Assembly (NCBI RefSeq): GCF_018977255.1
Contig: NW_024704760.1
Location: forward strand, 4,526,001-4,590,000
Direction: 5' to 3'
DNA length: 64,000 nt
From: Callorhinchus milii
Taxonomy: Eukaryota
In this document: positions 3,431 through 24,300 of the stretch, piece after piece
Layout: each line of letters opens with the position of its first letter
How positions within the stretch are numbered: position 1 is the first letter of the stretch
The notes under the pieces: model-generated
What the model was told of the DNA's origin: nothing
Database searches by the model: none
The model's input: the letters and a program-made list of their open reading frames with translations, nothing else
Position numbers and translations under genes: made by a program

Positions 3431-4123
3431 CACAGGATTCTTGAGCTCACAAAACATACAGTCAATCCACTTTACAGTATATTCTGCAAAGCGCTTTTGA
3501 GACGTCTCGAAGACGTGATGAGGAGCTATATCAAATGCAAGGTTTATTATTATACATGTCGGACTGGAGGCATGTGCTCAGCATTATCTTCTAGCCAGCA
3601 CTATTGATGGAGAAGAGCTTTCACTCTCACTCCTTCACGCACACACACAGCAGCTTCAGCTTTAGACAGTTTTAAGCACAACATTTGCACTCACTAACTG
3701 GAAAGAAAACGTGAATGAATTTTGAACTGCTACCACCACGCCACACCACAAACTCAATTCCGAGCTATTCCAACACTAAGTGAAGAAAATATCTTGGTAA
3801 CACGGTGTCAAGACGTCGGTACGCAGTGCGTTACAAGTGTATTTTCAAGTATTTGAATAGGAAGAGGTTTTATTTTTCCCATGCACTGTTAAAATCGCCT
3901 TGCATTACCCAAATGTAGGGGTGGGGTAACTTAACGATTTGCGTTCCTTCTACATAAAACTTAATAATAGACCCACGACAAATAATGTCTAGGAACTGAA
4001 GGGATGACAGTCACTGTCTCTCTTTCTTTCTTTTTCTCTCTCTATCCATATACATCCACATATATATATATATATATTTGTATCTGAGAGAAACTCTAGA
4101 GCATCTCACAGCAAAGCACGTAC

Positions 4124-4230
4124 CTGCAAGACACTGTGATCTCTACTTTAGTGGCTGGGATATTTCCTTGGATGGGATCGAAGTCGCTCACAGAAGCCAT
4201 ATCATCGAATTTGTCCATAGCGTCTTCCAT
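4124..4230 (-). CDS. CPNE5: Copine-5-like, first coding exon (rest of gene lies beyond left edge or was not found)
   Basis: Reverse strand reads MEDAMDKFDDMASVSDFDPIQGNIPATKVEITVSC(R), ending AG|GTACGT in phase 2, with an in-frame TGA upstream of the ATG. Closely matches the recalled CPNE5 N-terminus (DMASLSEFDSLAGSIPATKVEITVSCR), better than CPNE8. Not in the ORF track. Confidence 0.88.
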
Positions 4231-9614: not shown

Positions 9615-9971
9615 TATTAATAATAATAATCCTTGCATTTGATATAGTGCCTTATCATGTTGTTGAGACGTCTCAAAGTGCTTCACAGAATACACTGTAA
9701 AGTGAATTGACTCTATATTTGTGGGTGAAACGCATCAGCCAATTACACACAACAGTGTCCCACAAACCATCGTGGATTGCGTGACCAAATTATTATTATT
9801 ATTTTGGAAGGGATTATAACCCCCGGAAAGGGTTCCGCTGATCGACTTAACAACTGGTTCCTATTTACTACTAGGTAAGCAGAGGCGTGTGGAGTCAGGA
9901 AACTTGCCTAAGGTTTCGCCCCGCCCAGGAAACGAACCTGGGTGCTCTAACCAATAACGCTACAGGACTCC
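9615..9971 (-). mobile_element. tRNA-derived Deu-domain SINE
   Basis: Same head, body and tail as the 33274 copy. Confidence 0.8.
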
Positions 9972-10023
9972 ATGAACACAAATTGAAGAGGTTCAGGAAA
10001 TGAACGCAGGAAGAGTCTGGCAA

Positions 10024-10104
10024 ACTGCAAAGTCAGCAAAATATTGGGAGCGTCAGAGTCAACAGTCACAAGACACAGCAAATGTGCCGGGTTAATGATT
10101 ATCT
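10024..10104 (+). promoter_or_regulatory. Putative proximal promoter motifs (HNF4-like, HNF1, GATA) of the 97-aa ORF
   Basis: GGTTAATGATTATC at 10090-10103 is 1 mismatch from the HNF1 palindrome GGTTAATNATTAAC and overlaps TTATCT (GATA). CAAAGTCA at ~10028 is HNF4-like. Confidence 0.45.
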
Positions 10105-10199
10105 CCCGGGATGAAAGGGCAAGGTACTGAGCACAAGGGATCGTGTCGATTGCAGAAGGAGGAAAAGTCACCTAATGTGCTTCACTGGCTTGCTAAACC

Positions 10200-10493
10200 A
10201 TGTTGGAGCAGATCTTTTATGCCGTGGTCGCCTTGATTTACTTTTACAAAGTCGCCACCGGTTGCAAGAAGAATGAGCTGCTCTTGGACAACCGAGCGTC
10301 TGCTAACGTGGCTTGCCTCTTCGTGATCGTCCAGCCTCTCAGCTTGCTGCTGGGGGGATACACGGGCATGTTGGCTTTCTCCATCTTCGCTGTTTTCTCT
10401 TACAACTTTTTGCCCAAGAATCTGGATGTGGCTCGTGGGGAAGAAATGCCAGCCCAACAACACAAACCACCTGCGAAGAAGAAAGTTCACTGA
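10200..10493 (+). CDS. Uncharacterised 97-aa multi-pass membrane protein with C-terminal KKxx motif
   Basis: ACCATG start with in-frame stop just upstream, C/G-rich third codon positions, about three hydrophobic segments, ends KKKVH*. Not repeat-derived as far as I can see. Confidence 0.6.
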   Translation: MLEQIFYAVVALIYFYKVATGCKKNELLLDNRASANVACLFVIVQPLSLLLGGYTGMLAFSIFAVFSYNFLPKNLDVARGEEMPAQQHKPPAKKKVH

Positions 10494-10494
10494 T

Positions 10495-10782
10495 CTCTTC
10501 CCCTTCATTTTTTTACTCCCCTCTCTCTTCCTTTCCGCCCTTCTCCGCCCCCTTTCTTCCTTTCCATCCCTCTCTCCCCCGCCCCCCCCCCTTGCCCTCT
10601 CTCTTCCTCCCCCTTCTCTTTCCCCCAACCCCTCGCCCCCTCCCCTTTCTTCCTCTCACCACCTCCCTTCCTCCCTCTCTCTTCCTCTCACCCCTTCTCT
10701 CTCTCTCTCCACTCCCTCTCTTCCTCCTCTTCTCTCTCTTCCTCCAACCCCTTCTCTTGCTCTGCCCTTCCCCTCCCCTCCA
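10495..10782 (+). repeat. Polypyrimidine/CT-rich low-complexity tract
   Basis: ~290 nt almost purely C/T on the + strand. Confidence 0.9.
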
Positions 10783-13700
10783 AGAAAAGAAAAGTCATTG
10801 AAATTTGCCGGTAACATTGTGTTCAGAACTTTGAACTGCACAGATCAAGGTGCGCCCAAAGGGATTATTCATTTAATGGATTGATTTCAACCAGGTGGGA
10901 TTTTGTTTCAGATCCAGAATTTGGAGCTGGTTTAATTGCACAGAAACAACCCGACTCCTGGAAGCTTCGTCAATTCTACCAATTGAGGTTTGCACATGTT
11001 TGCGATCCTTTTGCAACTCGCTAATCGTTATGTGGAGGCAAAGTGACTGGCTTGAACCCAACATTTTTTTTTCTTGACATTTGAAGCACAGAACACTGTG
11101 AACCAAGTAGATCGGGGCTCCATCACTCCAGCCTTTCTCTCTATGAGTTCCTGAAGCCAACCAGGGTCACTGAACTAGCAACACTTATCTGCAGTGATCC
11201 ATTGCGGGGAGATTATTTTTGTCATGACTGGCAAAAAAAAATCTTCAAACACATTCCACTCAAAGTGTCATGATCTGTAAATCCGCTTCAGTGTCTGAGT
11301 ATATATTGGGGTTTGGATCATGAACACTTGGGACATTAGAAACGGGATATTTTCTGCTTGGATCAAGTTCAAAAGGAATTAAAGATACCACCGCAAAGAG
11401 TACGGAGCTTCTCCCTGTGCTCTGGCCAACCATCCCTCAAGCAAAAATTGGTCAATCACTTTCATGGCTGTTTGTGCGACATTAATTTGTCCACATTGGC
11501 TGCTGCATTTGCCTACAAACTACGCAGTCATTCCATATTATTTTGTTAAGCTTTGAGGTGTTTGAATGAGTGATATGTATCAATATTTGATTGCTATATC
11601 AAATTATTATTATACCATTGTACTGGTTGCTGCTCCTTATACGTCAGTTCAGTTTTGTACTGCGTTGAAGCTAATAAATAATATGGATAATAAGATCCTC
11701 CCAGAGTCAGATGGTATTTTCAAGAACTATTCCATAAGGGACATCTGCATAACATCTTTTATATAGCCTGCAATATCTCTGAAACTTAATTTGCACTGGG
11801 TAAAATGTTGAGTTAATTTTAATCCAGTGAGCGATAGAACTAATGTGCATTTAGTCTCTCATTGAAAATAATGGGAAGTGGAATGTGCAAGCAAAAGACA
11901 CCCTCTATTGATTCATTTTCTCTCTCTCTCACACACACACAGCTCTTTCAGCCGTCTCTCAGTGGAAATATAACATTGAGGTTGCGATAAATATTAACCA
12001 CTTTTCTGCATTAAAAACAAATTGCTTTGGAGTTGGGAGATCTCGGATTCAGTGATTTATTAGCAGTAGTGTGCGTGCCCCTGCACTGTGGAGTCAGTCG
12101 GTCAATTGTGCTGTCCTTAATTCTGAAGCATTCCATGCACTTACAGGATGCAGAGTCACGTAATAATTGTAATTAGCGCATGTTATTTTACGGGTTTCTG
12201 AGCCCACTCGCAAGGCGGAAGTTTGGAAAGCATCCTGCCCTGTAAATCTTTTGACAGCACCTAATTGTAGAAAAAAAAAACGCCTGTTTAGAGGGACCGC
12301 TATCATTTTATCTCTTTGCTTTCACACAGCAATTCCTCCTTGGCAGATGAAGAATGCTCTTGTTTCCAACTATCTCATCCTTCCAGACACCTCCTACCCA
12401 CTAACTGTCCTCCCATCATGGCATCAAGCTGTTTCTTAAGAAATGCGTCTTGGTTTCAACCAGGCTTCCTGATAACCTTTTCCAAAGGACAGCAGTTCTG
12501 ACAGTTCAATTTACACATTATATATTGCCTTACACGTCATAAAGACAAAGTGTTGGGCAATTCTGGCTCTGGGTAAAGAAATATCAATATTTTATATTGC
12601 CCTCTACAACCCTAAACCCGAATCCTCTTGTTTTGCTCTCTCAGTGCATTCGAGCATATTGTTCTGGGTTCACTTCCTCCATCCCATGTCAAATCTTATA
12701 TACTTCCATAAGACATCTTTCGAAGCTGAAGTGCCCTAGCTTGTCGAATCATTGCTCACAGCTCATTCCTCTAACCCTGGAGGAATGCACAGTCAGCCAC
12801 ACAAGACTCACTTACATCTATCACTAGAAAACATTGCTTGTTATGTTTACCCTTCACATCTCGAAACTCGAGGCAAGTTTCCTTGGTCCACACGCCTCCT
12901 GACATGAAAGGCGCTATATAAATGTAATTTGTTGTTGCTGTTAACCTAGCAATAAGTAAAAACCCGGTTGTTCGTCAATTGGCAGATCACTCTCTGGGGG
13001 TAATAGGCCCTCCAAAAATAATAATTAGTCACTCAATCCACAAATGTTTATGGGATGTTGCTGTGTGCAATTAGCTGCCACGTTTCACCCACAAAATATA
13101 CAGTATATTATGTTCTGTCACCAATGTGATAAGGAGCTATATCAAATGCAAGGATTACAATCTCTCTTTCTCTCTCTCCACGTCATATGCCTTCTTTCCC
13201 TTCCCTACCAAAAATGTGCATGAGAGCTCGCAGCTGTGTGTGATCAAATCTTTCCTTTGCTATTGGTACAATACGAGCAGCCATCTTGCCCTATTTGGCT
13301 TGAAACGATTGGCCTCAGAGAAGAAGATGTTCATGAAGGATGACAATTTTCAGCAAATTTAAAAATGGAACTAATTTTAATCTACGGAGTGATTTTCAAA
13401 TCGTTAAGCAGCAATTTAGTGCTGCTAGAGCTGTTTACAATAGATGTGGTGAAGATTGATCTTTGTATTTGTACCCTGGAGGTCTATTTAATCATACCAT
13501 AGGGGGAAATAACTGAGCGGAATTAATGCAGCTATTACGTGGGAGAGGTAAAACATTTCTGTATCGTACACATCACAAAATGCAGTCTCCGTCTCCCAGC
13601 TGTTCACTACCAGGCTTCACTGTCAACAGGGAGTTGAAGATGTCTTTTTTCCATGAGTGATCAATATGGGACACAGTAGGGGGAGACAGATGTCACGCTA

Positions 13701-14789: not shown

Positions 14790-17700
14790 CATTGCCACAC
14801 ATAACTTTAATATCAGTTGAACAGTATTTACATTCAACAATTGTGTAACATCTTAAATAACTTTTTACACTTGTTACACTTTCTCTTCTTTTTTTACAGT
14901 TTGGAACATTTCCCCCCCAAAAAAGGACTTGCACAATGTAGAAAAATCTTTACAGAAATATACACGCAAGAATAGTAGAATTACAAAAGGCACTTTATCT
15001 TCACAGTAGTGCTTCGGTTATTCCCACGCTCCATTCCCAGTATGCGCTACCATTGACCCGACATTGAAAATGGACAGTGTTTCCTTTTGCCTGCGGTGTA
15101 TGTCATTACAATATACATTGTCCGAAGCCATCACATCAACACATCAAGACTGACGGATCAGCTTCCTATTCCGATCCGCACAGCTTACTAAAGAGAACTA
15201 ATCGCGGTGTGTTCTATGGACAATCTAGGAAGTCTATCAAATAACTCGTGACCTTCTCACACATCTAGGGTAAGGGATTTCACCCTTAAGGAAAAAAATT
15301 ACATTCTAGGAGTCCTATAGGAAATACACTGAAGATTCTGTACAACCACTCTTCCCTTCCTCTGCTTCAAAGACCATCAAGTTTGTTTAACTTAACATCC
15401 GGCGGTGACTTTGTCGATACTGCAAGGGGTTTAAGAGCCTTCAAACTGAAGTAGACCAACCGACACAGAAATAAATACAATGCTATGTCAAAAGTACAAT
15501 GGGCAGAGAGTTTACTGTGCAACACTTGGATGTGTAAGTTTAATTGTCTGCCTCCATTCTCAACCCGAGTACTGAATGGGCAGTAATACGCTCGGTATTC
15601 ATTCAAGTGGTGCATTGCAACACCTGCTGTGTTGCGATCTTAGGTCCAGTGGTAAAATGTTTCAAGATGTCAAGACATAGTATTTCTACACTTATTTACA
15701 AGCAATTCTAAACCCTACTGACTTCTTACATTTACTTACGACTGGCAAACAATTATTCAAGAGTGTTGGACACTTTGCACGTGGCTCAGTAATCTAACAT
15801 GGCACAGTTCTGCAGTCTAAACGATTATATTACAAAGGTACATCCCAGAATAATCAAAACTGTAAACATGAAATAACTTACACTTAACAGTAGTTCTGTC
15901 CAGCTGGGCCAGGCTGCCATCACCCGAACCCAAAGGTTAACTCACACTTGCAATTGGACACAAAAAGACAACCAGTTTTTGCCCCTTTTTTCTCTTGGGA
16001 ATTGCCCCAAAGATTTTTTTCTTTTTTTTTCCCCCACCCCAAAAAAAAAAACATCTTCGAAGCTTGTATTTTGGGTTGGATAAATTACGAAAATGAGTGA
16101 AGTGAGCAGATCCAACCAATCCTTGGGTCTTCCCACAGAATACTGAGCCAAAAAACAAGGATGTTCTTCAATGCTGGAGAGAGCAAATGTGATACCCCAC
16201 TTGTAAAATGCTGAAACCGATGCACACGGTTGTGAACTTGGCAACTTAGCTCAAGTTACTGGATTCAAAAATTACCTTGCAAAATACACCAGAGGAATAA
16301 ATAAAGTGAGGCGTTCCTTGAAGCAAATGCTTGGTTGGACTTCTCTCAGAATAGGAGAGGTAGTTACAAAGTGTGCCCTTACCCTGCACATGCCTGCATT
16401 TGGCATGTGGAATGCTCGAGGAAACTGTGCAATTAAATAAAACGCACCTTAACACAAGGCAGTGAAATCCCAGTGAAATCAGTAGTACGGTTAGTGGGGG
16501 GTTGTCAACTTTGTGGGGTGTGTGCGTGAAAAGAGGTAGTAAAAATGTAACACAATAGAGCAACCCATATTATGACTTCAGATCAGGACTGTCACAAGTA
16601 CCGCAAATGTGAGAAGCAATATTTTAACACTGGTGCGCACAAAAGGTTGACTTTCAAAACCCTTTAAAGAGGGGTTGCAACCTGTAGCAACCAAACTTTT
16701 TAATCTACTGTTTAGCAGAGGTCCACAGATCCCAAAGATCTTGGTTGGAATATTTTTCTCTCTTCCACCGAGGTGTATTGAGGTGGCTCAACAGACGTTG
16801 CCAAATCTATGTTGTGAAAAGTGGACATTTCCCTCAAGGTTTGAAAGGTGTTCAAACACCTCAGAGATGATTTTTCATTTGGGAGATGGAAACAAATTGC
16901 TGCCTGTTGTACCAGTTCACTTCAGTTAAAAAAAACAGTACCCTCGAACACACAAGCTCATCGCAATTTCTCAAAGGCCCTGATGATCAATCCAAGTGTA
17001 ATTCCACACAAGATCCAGCATTCAGACGCACAGAATAGGCAACAGAACCGAGCATTACAGAGTTTGCTTGTGACAGACATTTACTTATTCCTAAATTTAT
17101 GGTCAGGGATTTTCTCCCCTTCTCCCCATCCTAAACGTTTGCATCCACTGAATTAAAGTGATGCTCATTCTCTGGAATGGTTCATTAAGATGAACGGTCA
17201 AGTCAAAATTAAGGTTGGGATTTTATTTCCATCCTAAAACCTCCCCTCCTCTAGTGCTCAGGTATAACCTTCCTAGTAGTTACGGTACAGGGACCAAGGT
17301 TTATGCTTGTAGTTATAATGGAGATAAATTAGATTGTAAAGTAAATGCACATTGTAAAATTCCTTACACTAGGATATGCCTCCATTACTTGCAAAGAAAG
17401 GGATATTCTAGAGATTTGTGATGGGGTGAGAGGAGAAGTTCTGCCCAGGTGATGTTCTTTTTCTTCTTCTTAGCATTTCCTCAACGTTCGAATAATTCTT
17501 AAAATTCAGTCAGCATTTTGAAGCCAGTTTCCTGAACTTCTTACAAAGAAACTCAAGGACAAACTGCTTCAATTAAAAGTGAATCGTCCTGAACAGCCAT
17601 GCTCAGAAATGCTCAGAGAAAGTCTACGTCTAGACTCAGATTGAGGTCCCCCCACCCCACCCCACATACTCCAATAACACGGACTAACAGTCAAAGCAGA

Positions 17701-18268
17701 TATTATGTCTGCGAGGGAATCAATGCTCTAAATTGCAATGTCTAAGTGACAACAGTGTAGGAAGGAAGTATTAGCAATGCATACACTCAGTAGTTCTGAA
17801 TACCTGCCCAGATCATCACAGATTCCCACCTGCTCATGCATCTCAAGAGGAATTTATCCACCTGCAAAACCATCATCTGTTGCCATAAATACAACACAGG
17901 ATTTCATTCAAGTGTTATGCATTGCGTTAAAATTAAACAAATGCAATTGGAGAACCCTCCTGCAGGAGCGAGTCCTTGCACGAAAGAGCCTCACTTGCCG
18001 AACGTGCAGAAAGACTGCACCTAATGTAGGTGTGCAGCTTGTTGTTATCTTGATGGAAGCAAAACTTCGACACCAATCAAGTGGTAGAAATGAGCTACAA
18101 GGCGGTAGCTTGCAAGCTCGTCAGTTCAGAGAGCCACCACCAAAACTGTACTGTTCTTTGGTCAGGACACGAAACACGGCTTTCCAATCTCGCGTCCCAA
18201 TCCTAGTTATTCTTCTGCGAAAGTAACCTTTGAGGAGAATGACGGCAGACTTCGAAACTGCGGACGCA
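14790..18268 (-). other. KIF21B: Probable KIF21B 3' UTR
   Basis: Follows the stop of the distal terminal exon; largely SINE-free; carries Pumilio (UGUAAAUA) and miRNA seed matches. Confidence 0.55.
14806..14811 (-). terminator. Putative KIF21B distal polyadenylation signal (ATTAAA)
   Basis: Minus strand ATTAAA followed by GU/U-rich GTTATGTGTGG...TTTCTTGTTG, at the end of a repeat-poor U-rich stretch. Confidence 0.5.
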
Positions 18269-18347
18269 TCAGTCGGGAAGTGTCATAATGTCCGGCGTGT
18301 GTTCGTTTGACAATCCTTTCGTGATCCAGGTTTTTATTTTGCAGTCA
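18269..18347 (-). CDS. KIF21B: KIF21B alternative terminal exon B
   Basis: TTTTCTTTCAG|T then [25 protein letters not shown]; phase 2, completes the last WD40 strand (D-x-x-I-K-x-W). Confidence 0.75.
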
Positions 18348-21300
18348 CTGAAAGAAAACGTGTGGGGGTGGGGGGGAAAAGTTACTCGGGGTTTCGGACG
18401 ACAGATCTTCGACTCTGAAAGAAGCACGTTCTTCCAAAGTAGTCACTTGATTGAGCCGCGAAGTGTTTTTTTAAAAAATAAAAGCAAATCGGCAATAGAT
18501 TTTTGTAATTTCAAATCCGCCTTATAATAATAATCCTGGCATTTCATGTAGTGCTTTTCACGTCTTCTCGACATCTCAAAGCACTTCACAGAATACGCTG
18601 TAAAGTGAATTGACTGTATATTTGTGGGTGAAACGCGGCAGCCAATTGCGCACAGCGGCGTCCCCACAAACAGGCGCGGATTGAAAATGGCCAATTTATT
18701 ATTGTTTTGTTTTTTGGAGGGATTATTACTAGGTGTGTGGAGTAAGGAAACTTGCCCAAGGTTTCGCCTTGTAGTGACTCCTATGTTTGCGGGGATATTG
18801 GTATGGTCTGAGGAACACCCATTTGTTGTGATTGAGCCCCTCACTCTGTTTTTAACCTGAGCTAATAAAATACCATACTCACCAAGCTCCTGCAGGCAAG
18901 TGGGTGTCTACTAGCAATGTAACAGTCACCAATACTTTCCAACAATAATTCCAGTATTGGATATAGCGCCTTATGTCATCAAGTGCTTCCCACGTTTTAT
19001 TGTGAAGTCTATTGACCGTGTATTTGTAGGCAAAAGCGGCAGCCAATTTGCACCCAGCAACGCCCCCACAAAACAAACAGCCATGAAGTGAACCACCTTT
19101 TTTCTTTATTAATCTGGGGTATTATTGTTGGCCAGGACACAGGGAGAAACTCCCTTTTCCTTTCGAATAGCGCCACAGGATGTTTAACATCCACTTGAAC
19201 TGGCACAGAGAAGGGATCTCGGTTTAACATCTCATCCAAAAGACGGCACCTCCCATCAATGAAGAGCAGCCAACTCCCCCCACTCCCCACCCCAGCAAAG
19301 CGCAGTAGACTCTGGTTTAAGGCAGTGATCAGTTAACATACAAATTTCCAGACTCTCAAGAGATTCAGGGCGGTGCGGTGTTAGCAGGGAAGAGCGAAAG
19401 GCACAATGAAAATGAGTGAAAGAAAGAAAGAAATAAAGTAAAAGGCTGGAGGGAAAATCAAATCTGAACGACACAAATTATGCTTAAAGCCTGAGTTAAG
19501 ATTTTACTCGCTACAAGTTATTGCCCAATCTTTAAAAAAAACCCTACTTATCCTGTATTGATCACCAAGACCGTAACAAACACTGAAGGGACACAGCAGA
19601 GCAAAGGTCATTCAGCCATTTGCACAATTGTCCAGTTTGAAGGTGGCATTGGCAGATCTGTACGTACATGTTGAATTTCGAGGGAGGATTTATGGCTTGT
19701 ATTAGACTCTTTATTCCTTAAGATTTTTTTTTGCATAACATGAGGCAGAAAAACAGTATTGATCCATGTTGGAGTCCACCCACCCGATTCTCCCCGATAA
19801 CCCATTGCAAATGTCCTTACCATGGCAATGAGTGAGTGGGTCATCAACTGTATGGGGAAGTGTGGCATTCAATCAATAGCATTCCACTCAATTAAGGTGC
19901 AATTAGCTCGAGCACAGAACAAGTGCATTAAGACATCAGGATAACTTGTGGAGGAATAGCGTTATAGACCCAAATTTGAGCTTTAACTTCGAGTAACTGA
20001 GCCTCAAGTCAATCAATTCTCCTAAATATGAGTTAATTTATTCCCATGCAGAGAAGGGAAAGCTACTTATCAAAAGCTCTAAAATCACAATAGATTAGAA
20101 AATAAATCTTTGACTTATTGAGTCTCGAAGAGTTTCACAGGATGTTACTGTGAAGGGCAGCGACTGTATATTTGTGGGTGAGTTTGTCGTTTAGGATTTG
20201 TAGCTATCGTTCAGTTAAGCCTGAAGTAATCATTGAGATATCATAGTTGGCAAATCAAATAGCTTGCGGGACATGAAGTTTCAGAAGGAAGTTTAAAGGC
20301 TGTCCAGGCTACGTATATTCAGAAAGGTTGAGAAGAGGATCACCATACCAAAACGAGCAGCAAAGAAGAGTCAAGTACGGACCAGAGCAGAAATCAGGAG
20401 CTTAAGGAACGCTACTGGCACGGCCTTTAATGGCAAGGACGCGGCGAGGCAGACATGGAGTCAGGCCAGCAACATAATTCCACAGCTTCACCCGGCAATC
20501 GCTGTAGGACACAGGAAAGGGAACAAAAGAGAGAGAGAGACATGCAGCGATAAGTTTGGAAGGTAAGAGATAGAGGAAAGTGTGGGGTGGGGGGGTGGGG
20601 TGGGGAGGGAGGGCAGGAGGGAGAAAGAAAGATCCAAGGATATACCGAAGCCTGACACAAGAACTGGAAATATAAAATGGTCGTCATGCGTCAGATCATT
20701 TCCATTTGTTATCGGTTTACAGAACGGGCACCATTATTAAGCGCTTTGTTAAGAGTGCAACTTCTCTTTTAACCTGGGTCGAGGGTTCCCAAAGCGCAGT
20801 ACAGTTCTGGCATGCACAGTCAAACTGAGAGCAAAAATCTTACACCCATTTTATGTCAAACAGATGTCCACAACAGGCCTCTCCCACCACCACCCACCCA
20901 TCGACCAACGCTCAACAGAACAAAGCATGTTTTTCAGACCTGGCAAGTAAAGGATATGGTTTTAATGAGGTCGGTTAATTTCTACTGTACTGCCCAGATA
21001 AAATTCCACTAGGAATGTGCGGAACAGATGAGTTAAATTGGTTATGTTAATATTTATCTGGCAGTTCCAAATCAACCACACAAGTGTATAATAATTTAAT
21101 CAGTGGCCAAACAAAGCAATAACATCAATCCGTGGAAACAAAACTCCTGCAATATTTCCACCTCCAACTTACCGTTCCCCCTCTTATTAATCAAGCCGGT
21201 CCTTTCATGGGGTGATTGATTCATTTAATGGAGTGCTGTAAACCTGCTCTGGTGTTATCTACCTACCTGGAAGCAGTGAAAATCTTGCTGGAATTTGTGC

Positions 21301-24300
21301 AGATGGCATTAATGGGGCTGTCGTGTCCTCGGATCTCTCCCAGTGGTGAGAAGTTGTCTATGTTCCACACTTTGAGCACCCCTCCTCGGCAACCGCTCAG
21401 TAACAGAGAGCGACCAGGTACAAAAGCCAAGGCACACACCCAATCCTTATGGGCATTAGGAATTTGCTAAACAAAATCAAGATACAAGTATTACAGCTCA
21501 GCCCACACAAGGACACAGTTACTACACTTTAACATTAATAATAATACTTACATTTGATAATGCAAACTCTGCAAAGTGCTTTGAGACGTTTCAATGACAT
21601 AACAAGGCACTATGTCAAACACAAGGATTATTATTATTTTTATACATTGCAAAAGCACAAACCAACTAATATAATTATATTAATATTCCATACACTGACA
21701 CATGCATTAGACATCAAATAGACTCTTTACCCTCAACAAGGTGATGTAAATTCAGTGTTGTACCTGTAATAGCTCTTGCTGTTCCAGGTCCCATTTCTTG
21801 ATCCCATTGTCCCGGGAGCCACTGAAGAGGATGTCCTCGTGGATGGCCAAAGACTCGATCCCATCGTAGTGAGGAGGCTCAAAGTTGTGCGTGGGACCGA
21901 CGTTTCCAAGAGTACCTTCTGCAATTTCAAACTTCTGCAAAAAAAAAAAAAAGTGGGGAAAAAAAAGCAAGGGGTTGAAGACATCCTCCTGACATGAGAG
22001 ACGCTGTATAAATTGTTGTTGTTGACGAGTTACAAGAACGTTACCTTCACATAGTGATCCTTTGATCCGGTGATGACTAGGTCATGTTTCGGTGCCATCT
22101 TCTCCACAGTGAGGCACATCACTGGTCCAATGTGACCTGTCAGTTTCCCAACGGGCTGCATTCTGTAAAGAAGAGAGAGGGAGAGAAAAGGAGTGAGAGC
22201 GGTGGAGGAGAGAAAGGGGGGGGTATAAAGGGGTATGGGTGGGGGGTGGGGGGGGAGCGAGATCAAGAAACAATCAGAAGAAAAGAAACAAGACATAAAT
22301 ACTGGAGGAAGACCAAAAGCAGTCCTGAAACACCAAAATTAACTAAAAGATCCTTTGTTTAAGATGGAAAAAGTTCATTTTGAAAGAAACCGAAAAGCAG
22401 GAAATGCGCGACAAATTGTTGAGTGACAAATGAGACGATTGTTTCAGAGTTTATTTTTATTTCAGGTGTCCAGCTGACACTGCATTTTGGAAAAAAAATA
22501 CGGGTTCTTCCGAGCAAGCAAGGTGAGGCATTTATTTATATTACTGGAATAACCCCTGGGTATGAAATCAATCGGTTATTCACCTCATGGCTGTTTGTTG
22601 CGGCTTTGCTGTGCATAAATTGGATGGTGCATTTCCCCTACAAACACACTTGACAGCATTTGCCTGCGACGTGCTATGAAACGCTTTGACGTTCTAGATC
22701 CTGTCTCAGGCAAATACGAGGATTATATATTTATACTCCTCAAAATTAGTTGGAAGGCAATGATCATGCAATATCATCAACTAAAAAACATTCACGGATC
22801 TCAAACCTTTCAATAGTTAAAGCCGTCTTAATCTCAAGCCTAATCGCTGTGTTAAATGTCTTGTTCTGAAACTCCCATGCAGAAAAGGGGATGGAATTCA
22901 AAATCCTCGTCCTTGCCATCGAGGCCGTCCACGGTATTTCCCCTTCCTACTTCAGTGACCTGCTCACCCCATATCAACCTGTCCACTCCCTCCGCTCAGC
23001 AGGCTCTGGCTGGTCCATATCCACCATCCGGCCAGCTTCATCATCGGCAATTGGGCCTTCAGCCTCTCTATATCCCCACCTTCTGGAGCTCCAACCCACA
23101 TTCCCTTCCCTTGCCTCCTTCAAGGCACCTCTCAACAAACCTTCCTTTTCCAACGTGCCTTCAGCCCACCCTCCTATCCTCCCTGCCCTCCACCCTCCCT
23201 CACCCCAATCCCTCCTCCCACCTGGGCTCGGGTCAAATCCCTGACTGTCCAGGGCCTTGAGGCGTCCTCCCAACGTGGAAGGCATTATATAAATGTAATG
23301 TTGTATTGTATTGCATTCAGTAAAGCAATCTTACCTTTTAAGGTCCCAGATCCGAACCGAGTTTCCGGTAGCAGCATAGAGGAGAGTGCCAGCAGGGTTC
23401 AATGCGATCTGGTTGATCTGGTGCTCACCTTGGGCAATGCTGACTGTTCTGCTGGCTGTGCTGGCACACGCATCGCCTGAAATGACCTGACCCGAGGAGC
23501 TGGGCAATAAGGAAAGCAGATGGTCATTCATCTTCAAACTGTTACACACTGGCATTTTGGACCCTACTCAATTTTATTCCAATTGTGGCTCAAGTGCTCT
23601 GTAAATTGGCTTCCCATCCACAAGCAAGTATATAATTAACAACAATAAAACAGCAATGAGGACAAGCCAAAGTTACAGTCGGTTTCTTCCAATGAAGTGG
23701 AAATCTTAATCTCTCCATTGTTCAAAGGTATAGGTTAGGATCAAACGTCCATTTTTAAAATTGGGTTCATGAATCCTAGTTAAAGAATCAATGGTTTAAG
23801 TTTAAATTGATTAGCTTTTCAGATTAGATTTCGCCCACAAAATACACAAGTCAATCCGCTTTACATGTTATCCTGTGACGTTCTTTGAGATATCTCAACG
23901 ATGTGATAAGGTGCTATATCAAATATAAAAATTATTATTACTATTAGATTGAAATTAATGACTAGATGTGTGAATTTCTGCTCAGACTATTTTGATTTCT
24001 TTGACAGAATTCTATGACAGAAACCTACGAGTGATCAATATCTATAAACCTCCCATTTAATCCACTGATGTCCTATGAAGTCTACCGTGACATTACAGCA
24101 ATAGTAAAGCCACAAATAAACCTAATTTGGATTAATGTAAACCATTATTTAAAAGCCTTGAGAATAATTCTTTCTGATGTCTTTATTTAGAGGAGTGCAG
24201 TTTGGACAAGGATTGATTTGTTCACGAATGCTTAGGTTTTGGTTTGAAGACAAGTTTGCTTTGAAGATATAACCATTCTTTATGAAAGAAGAAAAAACAG

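Follow-up and report, generated by a model that had tools for sequence, protein, structure and literature searches.

Position and structure of the gene

The window, by which the whole 64-kb stretch of Callorhinchus milii DNA analyzed is meant, contains a single-exon ORF of 97 amino acids at positions 10200 to 10493 on the plus strand. Its predicted product consists of a 73-residue conserved membrane core and a variable basic tail. The first coding exon of a copine gene (4123 to 4230, minus strand) lies head to head with the ORF about 6 kb away, and the last two exons of a kinesin gene (18120 to 21466, minus strand), joined by splicing in run X1, lie tail to tail with it. We take these neighbors to be of the CPNE5 and KIF21B types, names that rest in part on the neighborhood. 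A preliminary description of the locus had placed the ORF between two such genes, and the copine first exon and the KIF21B-type 3' exons agree with this. PPIL1 is located 160 kb upstream on the same strand. The 3' UTR of the KIF21B-type gene appears to extend over at least 3.4 kb in run X1 (14879 to 18347, minus strand). Fragments of high-copy interspersed repeats flank the small gene at 9618 to 9950, 11450 to 11525 and 18570 to 18770.

The start codon stands in the context ACCATG, and the N-terminus is fixed because an in-frame TAA lies just 5' of it (10194 to 10196, plus strand). The GC content at codon third positions was 0.67 in the ORF and 0.40 in the flanks. The translation ends in KKVH (10479 to 10490, plus strand), a motif of the KKxx ER-retrieval type. 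The preliminary description had listed an intronless coding ORF with this start context and upstream stop, coding-like third positions, hydrophobic segments and the terminal KKVH; all of these were found again, and the homologues, dN/dS values and contigs described below agree with the coding status. It had drawn the feature from 10020 to 10493. The end was correct, but the start takes in the upstream region, as the ORF begins only at 10200. Two out-of-frame ATGs occur upstream, and their ORFs, at 10111 to 10236 (41 amino acids) and 10175 to 10276, both on the plus strand, overlap the main start and could damp translation of the main ORF. An antisense ORF of 108 amino acids (10182 to 10508) had no Pfam match and was read as a shadow of the real frame.

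Three helices are predicted in the core, corresponding to the hydrophobic segments. Helix 1 comprises residues 2 to 23 (10203 to 10268), helix 2 residues 31 to 51 (10290 to 10352) and helix 3, which follows G52, residues 53 to 70 (10356 to 10409). Among 73 aligned family members the invariant residues were Y7 and Y14 in helix 1, L29, A33, S34, F41 and Q45 in helix 2 or just before it, G52, and G56 and S67 in helix 3. The helices, with hydropathy peaks of 1.4 to 1.8, are candidate membrane spans. The AlphaFold model, of modest confidence (mean pLDDT 62 to 66), has three helices followed by a disordered tail, and a deeper alignment gave no better model (pLDDT 62).

Neither the ORF nor any stand-alone relative inspected contains the Rossmann motif TGxxxGxG or the motif YxxxK. 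At the curated cut-off no Pfam family, and no short-chain dehydrogenase/reductase (SDR) family, matched the ORF, and a Pfam search with 17 family members returned only three unrelated bacterial families (E 0.013 to 0.057). Foldseek gave a best E of 2.7 for the predicted model and no specific fold match. The best VIA hit (Z 9.3) was to a designed helical cage and is within the helical-bundle background. A PDB sequence search found no relative of the ORF; its matches to KLHDC2 (E 0.12) and GAPDH (E 1.3) were regarded as chance. Matches in the ESM Atlas, only sub-0.9 bacterial hypothetical clusters, were rejected as well. Judged by its motifs, the ORF does not encode an SDR enzyme, in line with the earlier statement that the catalytic SDR domain is missing.

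Family, distribution and selection

The ORF had been called an orphan. This was wrong, since about 100 relatives exist across vertebrates. Word-indexed searches with the single ORF gave no match, which the full HMMER scan showed to be a failure of sensitivity: 18 of its 19 matches were true relatives (E 2e-18 to 3e-4), and the nineteenth, P0015, was a low-complexity repeat and was dropped. With a profile built from 17 sequences, 102 of 2445 candidates passed. The named sources are two lampreys, a sturgeon, many teleosts, a newt, six frogs and the loggerhead turtle. About 100 relatives keep the start, the core and the stop. All stand-alone records are annotated as hypothetical, uncharacterized or unnamed, except for one with the generic entry "Transmembrane protein".

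Two records are fused gene models. P0019 and P0028 join the ORF to other sequence, PPIL1 exons in the Leptobrachium model and a single-pass membrane protein from upstream in the Lampetra one; both are probably annotation errors that expose the neighbors of the gene. The frog model, with PPIL1 exons before the ORF, agrees with the gene order found here.

The matches included none from birds, mammals, sharks or coelacanth, but the 17-sequence profile also missed the turtle protein of the HMMER scan, so members in these groups may have escaped it. The gene was possibly lost in birds and mammals. None of 56 candidate stretches was a prokaryotic relative, and the searches made found no member outside vertebrates. 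In a tree of 22 cores the lampreys stood apart and the frogs grouped together, while most deep branches were unresolved. Protein searches of the fish's own genome gave one locus and no paralogue. The family HMM found nothing in the interval between KIF21A and a copine on C5, nor in 30 kb beside the copine on C12. The KIF21A-copine pair (C5:56,215,497-56,228,806) has the same arrangement as KIF21B-CPNE5, but no copy of the small gene could be detected in the 13 kb between its members.

No description of the gene was found in the literature searched, which consisted mostly of titles and the beginnings of abstracts. Five family locus identifiers gave no match there; small-ORF catalogues and atlases of zebrafish or Xenopus may carry the gene under other identifiers. 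The locus is not mentioned in the available part of PMC13689627. The preliminary term "undescribed" agrees with this, as no source searched gave a name.

At two teleost DNA loci the ORF lies in one exon and ends in TGA. Between these loci dN/dS was 0.12 over 72 core codons, with 6, 5 and 25 differences at the first, second and third codon positions. Compared with the two teleost loci, the ORF of the window gave dN/dS values of 0.09 and 0.21, at a dS near saturation. A likely intron of about 90 bases with a GTGAGT donor is conserved in the 5' UTR of two teleosts (L023:1760-1850 and L024:258-345) and was not seen in the window. Frame conservation and dN/dS in relatives had been proposed as a check, and both came out as expected of a coding gene, with the frame kept and dN/dS at 0.12. 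By this codon pattern the teleost copies are under purifying selection, and the family is real, ancient and unnamed in the sources searched.

Probable transcription of the locus

Contigs of two probable RNA runs, from two studies of the same species, cover a unit of 5' UTR, ORF and about 1 kb of 3' UTR at 10105 to 11525, whose plus orientation is taken from the ORF. Run X1 covers about 10105 to 11525 and run X2 10174 to 11502. None of the runs listed is recorded as RNA; X1 contains RNA, since a spliced KIF21B junction is present, that X2 does is a guess, and the contigs carry neither strand nor tissue. X7 and X9, also probable RNA runs, lack the ORF, so that cover was obtained in two of four such runs. 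In the DNA-like run X3 all 30 of 30 bins were covered. Run X8, from a second organism, gave no cover, which says nothing either way. Two coding variants in X2, at 10208 and 10487, are both synonymous. The covered transcript ends inside a repeat, with ATTAAA at 11378 and AATAAA at 11673. Transcripts had been named as a further check, and with these contigs the ORF is very likely expressed.

Alternatively, the ORF could have arisen by chance, belong to a noncoding transcript or to read-through of the KIF21B 3' UTR, or be the opening exon of a longer gene. The lack of strand in the contigs leaves room for this, as do a splice state known only among the joints listed and the one frog and one lamprey model that fuse the ORF to upstream sequence. 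In these models, however, sequence of other genes stands before an intact ORF. The cover drops to zero at 9984 to 10054 and at 11546 to 11800, and one X2 contig runs unspliced through the whole ORF and its stop, with no joint among those listed. About 100 relatives with conserved start, core and stop and the dN/dS of 0.12 likewise speak against an artefact. This explanation is largely refuted, and we consider it hardly credible.

The dilysine tail

KKxx is described as an ER-retrieval signal of membrane proteins in the available text of PMC1929074. Across the family the tail can be as short as about 14 residues or as long as 64. A KKxx or KxKxx end was present in 79 of 103 rows, the motif finder having left out 11 rows and the repeat having been removed; when counted again with 9 rows left out, the figure was 81 of 105. 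Lysine occupied position -3 in 87% of the 103 rows. After identical ends had been collapsed, the motif was found in 58 of 77 distinct tails, from a teleost-heavy sample of related members, compared with 26.8 ± 3.8 expected from 2000 rounds of shuffling confined to the last 8 residues, the highest of which gave 40. Of the 13 tails from non-teleost or unassigned members, seven had the strict motif and ten the K/R form; six, including that of the newt, were without the strict motif.

Eleven of the 24 misses gained the motif if the sequence was cut at a Trp, and the Trp in these tails looks like a TGA read through by the gene caller. The database versions of P0003, P0005, P0008, P0011, P0049, P0067, P0075 and P0140 run through a Trp past the dilysine end and thereby hide KKxx; these extensions apparently arose from TGA called as W. 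The HSD17B2-like gene of the fish's own genome ends in CKQK, not in a canonical KKxx. The dilysine tail of the preliminary description is present here and conserved in the family, and the protein is likely held in the ER by it.

Upstream motifs

An HNF1 palindrome with one mismatch is located at 10091 to 10103, about 100 nt upstream of the ORF as had been described, and overlaps a GATA motif (10099 to 10104). No other match of this kind occurs in the 64 kb; of 100 shuffled versions of the window, 19 contained one or more. A weak HNF4-like half-site, CAAAGT, is present at 10028 to 10033 on the plus strand. The HNF1 site ends 2 bases 5' of the first covered base, a spacing that we infer to be closer than usual.

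HNF1 sites with up to two mismatches were absent from the upstream regions of two teleosts (1.5 kb and 383 bp scanned). Both teleost promoters share a block of general conservation in which a GATA motif lies near -270 and an HNF4-like element near -215; a strict DR1 pattern had no match there, the HNF4-like element having two mismatches. The HNF1 site behind the term "HNF1-type promoter" is real in the window, where it stands with GATA and the weak HNF4-like motif, but it is not conserved in the two teleosts. An epithelial expression programme is plausible from these motifs.

Comparison with the HSD17B2 and HSD11B2 anchors

Two SDR genes of the fish's own genome, which we take to be HSD17B2-like and HSD11B2-like, each begin with an anchor exon (L019:1525-1803 and L004:1504-1773) followed by SDR exons, and both contain the Rossmann and YxxxK motifs. 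The two genes form a same-strand tandem pair separated by about 20 kb (C14:12,635,000-12,693,000), an arrangement that suggests tandem duplication. Between their anchors the identity is 34%, measured over a region that takes in the beginning of the Rossmann motif. Elsewhere, on C572, two near-identical RDH-like SDR copies (L015 and L016) lie 13 kb apart, and the frame of L016 shifts at the Rossmann motif.

The ORF resembles exon 1 of both HSD genes in its similar length, three hydrophobic segments, basic loop after segment 1, aromatic-x-Gly at the start of segment 3 and confinement to a single exon. Unlike them it lacks a Rossmann motif, YxxxK and further exons, and it ends in a basic tail and a stop. 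Its identity to the HSD17B2-like anchor is 16%, the two genes lie on different contigs (C19 and C14), and the family core is far better conserved than the HSD anchors.

The end-to-end alignment of a profile of 95 family cores to the HSD17B2-like exon 1 needed a single gap and had identical residues at 12 of 74 positions. Its score, 26.7, was equalled or exceeded by 1 of 5000 full shuffles and, with hydropathy preserved, by 5 of 5000 shuffles in 10-residue blocks and 6 of 5000 in 6-residue blocks. Of 881 non-self open frames this exon scored highest, the runner-up having 7.7, and none of 274 windows from 136 membrane-type ORFs, decoys that were all bacterial, reached its score (maximum 16.9); one sequence per HSD was used. 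The HSD11B2-like exon did not score significantly, as it was matched by 165 to 610 of 5000 shuffles and by 11 of the 274 decoy windows. The local HMMER score against the HSD17B2-like exon, 8.7 bits (E=18 at PDB size), was not significant, and one noncoding frame of 4058 outscored it locally. With HH-suite, a two-sequence HSD profile scored 25.0 at a probability of 36%, higher than all 150 column shuffles under both nulls used, while HSD17B2 alone had a probability of 2% and its score was reached by 11 of 150 decoys. The anchor hypothesis preceded these tests, but it had been picked out from among many proteins, so that the effective number of comparisons is large.

The anchor homology proposed at the outset thus fared moderately well for HSD17B2, which stood above all decoys end to end, but poorly for HSD11B2. 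The profile similarity to SDR N-termini that had been called for appeared in the end-to-end scores and not in the local HMMER score or the HH-suite probabilities. A common origin of the family with the HSD17B2-type anchor seems somewhat more likely than not.

A real, ER-retrieved accessory protein of the same kind could also be unrelated to SDR anchors, with a convergent layout of helix, basic loop, helix, glycine turn and helix. This would fit the failure of HMMER and HH-suite to give a significant probability and the position of the gene away from the HSD pair (C19 and C14). It would also fit the high conservation of the family core beside anchors that are only 34% identical, which points to a job of its own. 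Convergence accounts less well for end-to-end colinearity with one gap at a score above all frame and membrane decoys, and for an ORF core that is as long as HSD exon 1 and stops roughly at the point where the exon nears the Rossmann motif. Nor does it readily explain why the HSD pair profile stood above all 150 column shuffles in both nulls. We consider convergence possible, if on the doubtful side.

The protein might instead be a true microProtein that pairs with the HSD17B2 or HSD11B2 anchor and tunes steroid inactivation in non-mammalian vertebrates, via stability, localization or dominant-negative action. HSD17B2 and HSD11B2 act in gut, liver and kidney, and the promoter motifs are of the gut, liver and kidney kind; the same predicted compartment and the possible homology to the anchor would suit such a role too. 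SDR oligomers, however, form through the catalytic domain. Moreover the gene is present in lampreys and so may predate the two separate enzymes, on whose history the literature searched gave nothing. A complex prediction for the ORF core and the HSD17B2-like anchor scored 0.01 with no alignments used and counts neither way. On balance we regard this pairing as distinctly unlikely.

Proposed function and its significance

The preferred reading, which we regard as evenly poised, is that the gene encodes an ER-retrieved three-helix accessory protein of gut-, liver- or kidney-type epithelia, derived from a duplicated HSD17B2-type anchor exon. The protein would insert into the ER membrane with its basic tail cytosolic, and COPI would retrieve it via the dilysine tail, as expected from known KKxx biology. 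The invariant polar or small residues Y7, Y14, A33, S34, Q45, G52, G56 and S67 may form a packing or binding surface, and the protein would pack against an ER membrane partner as a non-catalytic subunit. Expression would take place in gut-, liver- or kidney-type epithelia, as the promoter motifs suggest. The anchor exon of an ancestral HSD17B2-type gene would have been duplicated before the lamprey split, an origin that would account for the colinearity as well as for the length and the single exon. A more specific version is unlikely, namely that a free-standing copy of the HSD17B2-type anchor has persisted for some 500 million years in lineages from lamprey to turtle and acts in the epithelia of fish and amphibians, either as an ER accessory protein or by regulating steroid-inactivating dehydrogenases directly.

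Small accessory subunits of the ER membrane are known, among them DPM2/DPM3, KRTCAP2, DAD1, TMEM258 and EMC6. Like the ORF product they have about 80 to 130 amino acids and two or three helices, are non-catalytic and carry an ER retrieval-type tail. The ORF product differs from them in having no Pfam model at E≤0.001, no PDB sequence and no specific fold match, and its family was seen in vertebrates only in the searches made here. MicroProteins are single-domain derivatives that bind their multi-domain relatives. If derived from the anchor, the ORF product would likewise represent a single domain copied from a larger protein and standing alone. The copied part, however, would be a membrane anchor and not a known dimerization domain, and binding to the parent is hypothetical.

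Vertebrate genes of this age with no name, Pfam model or findable paper are uncommon. As the gene is short, has a single exon and one copy here, and has relatives in Xenopus and medaka, it is open to direct knock-out and localization. If the anchor origin is true, the membrane-targeting exon of an enzyme would have turned into an independent gene, which would hint at a role for the unusual multi-helix anchor of HSD17B2 and HSD11B2. If the gene is truly missing from birds and mammals, it would mark an ER function dropped by those lineages.
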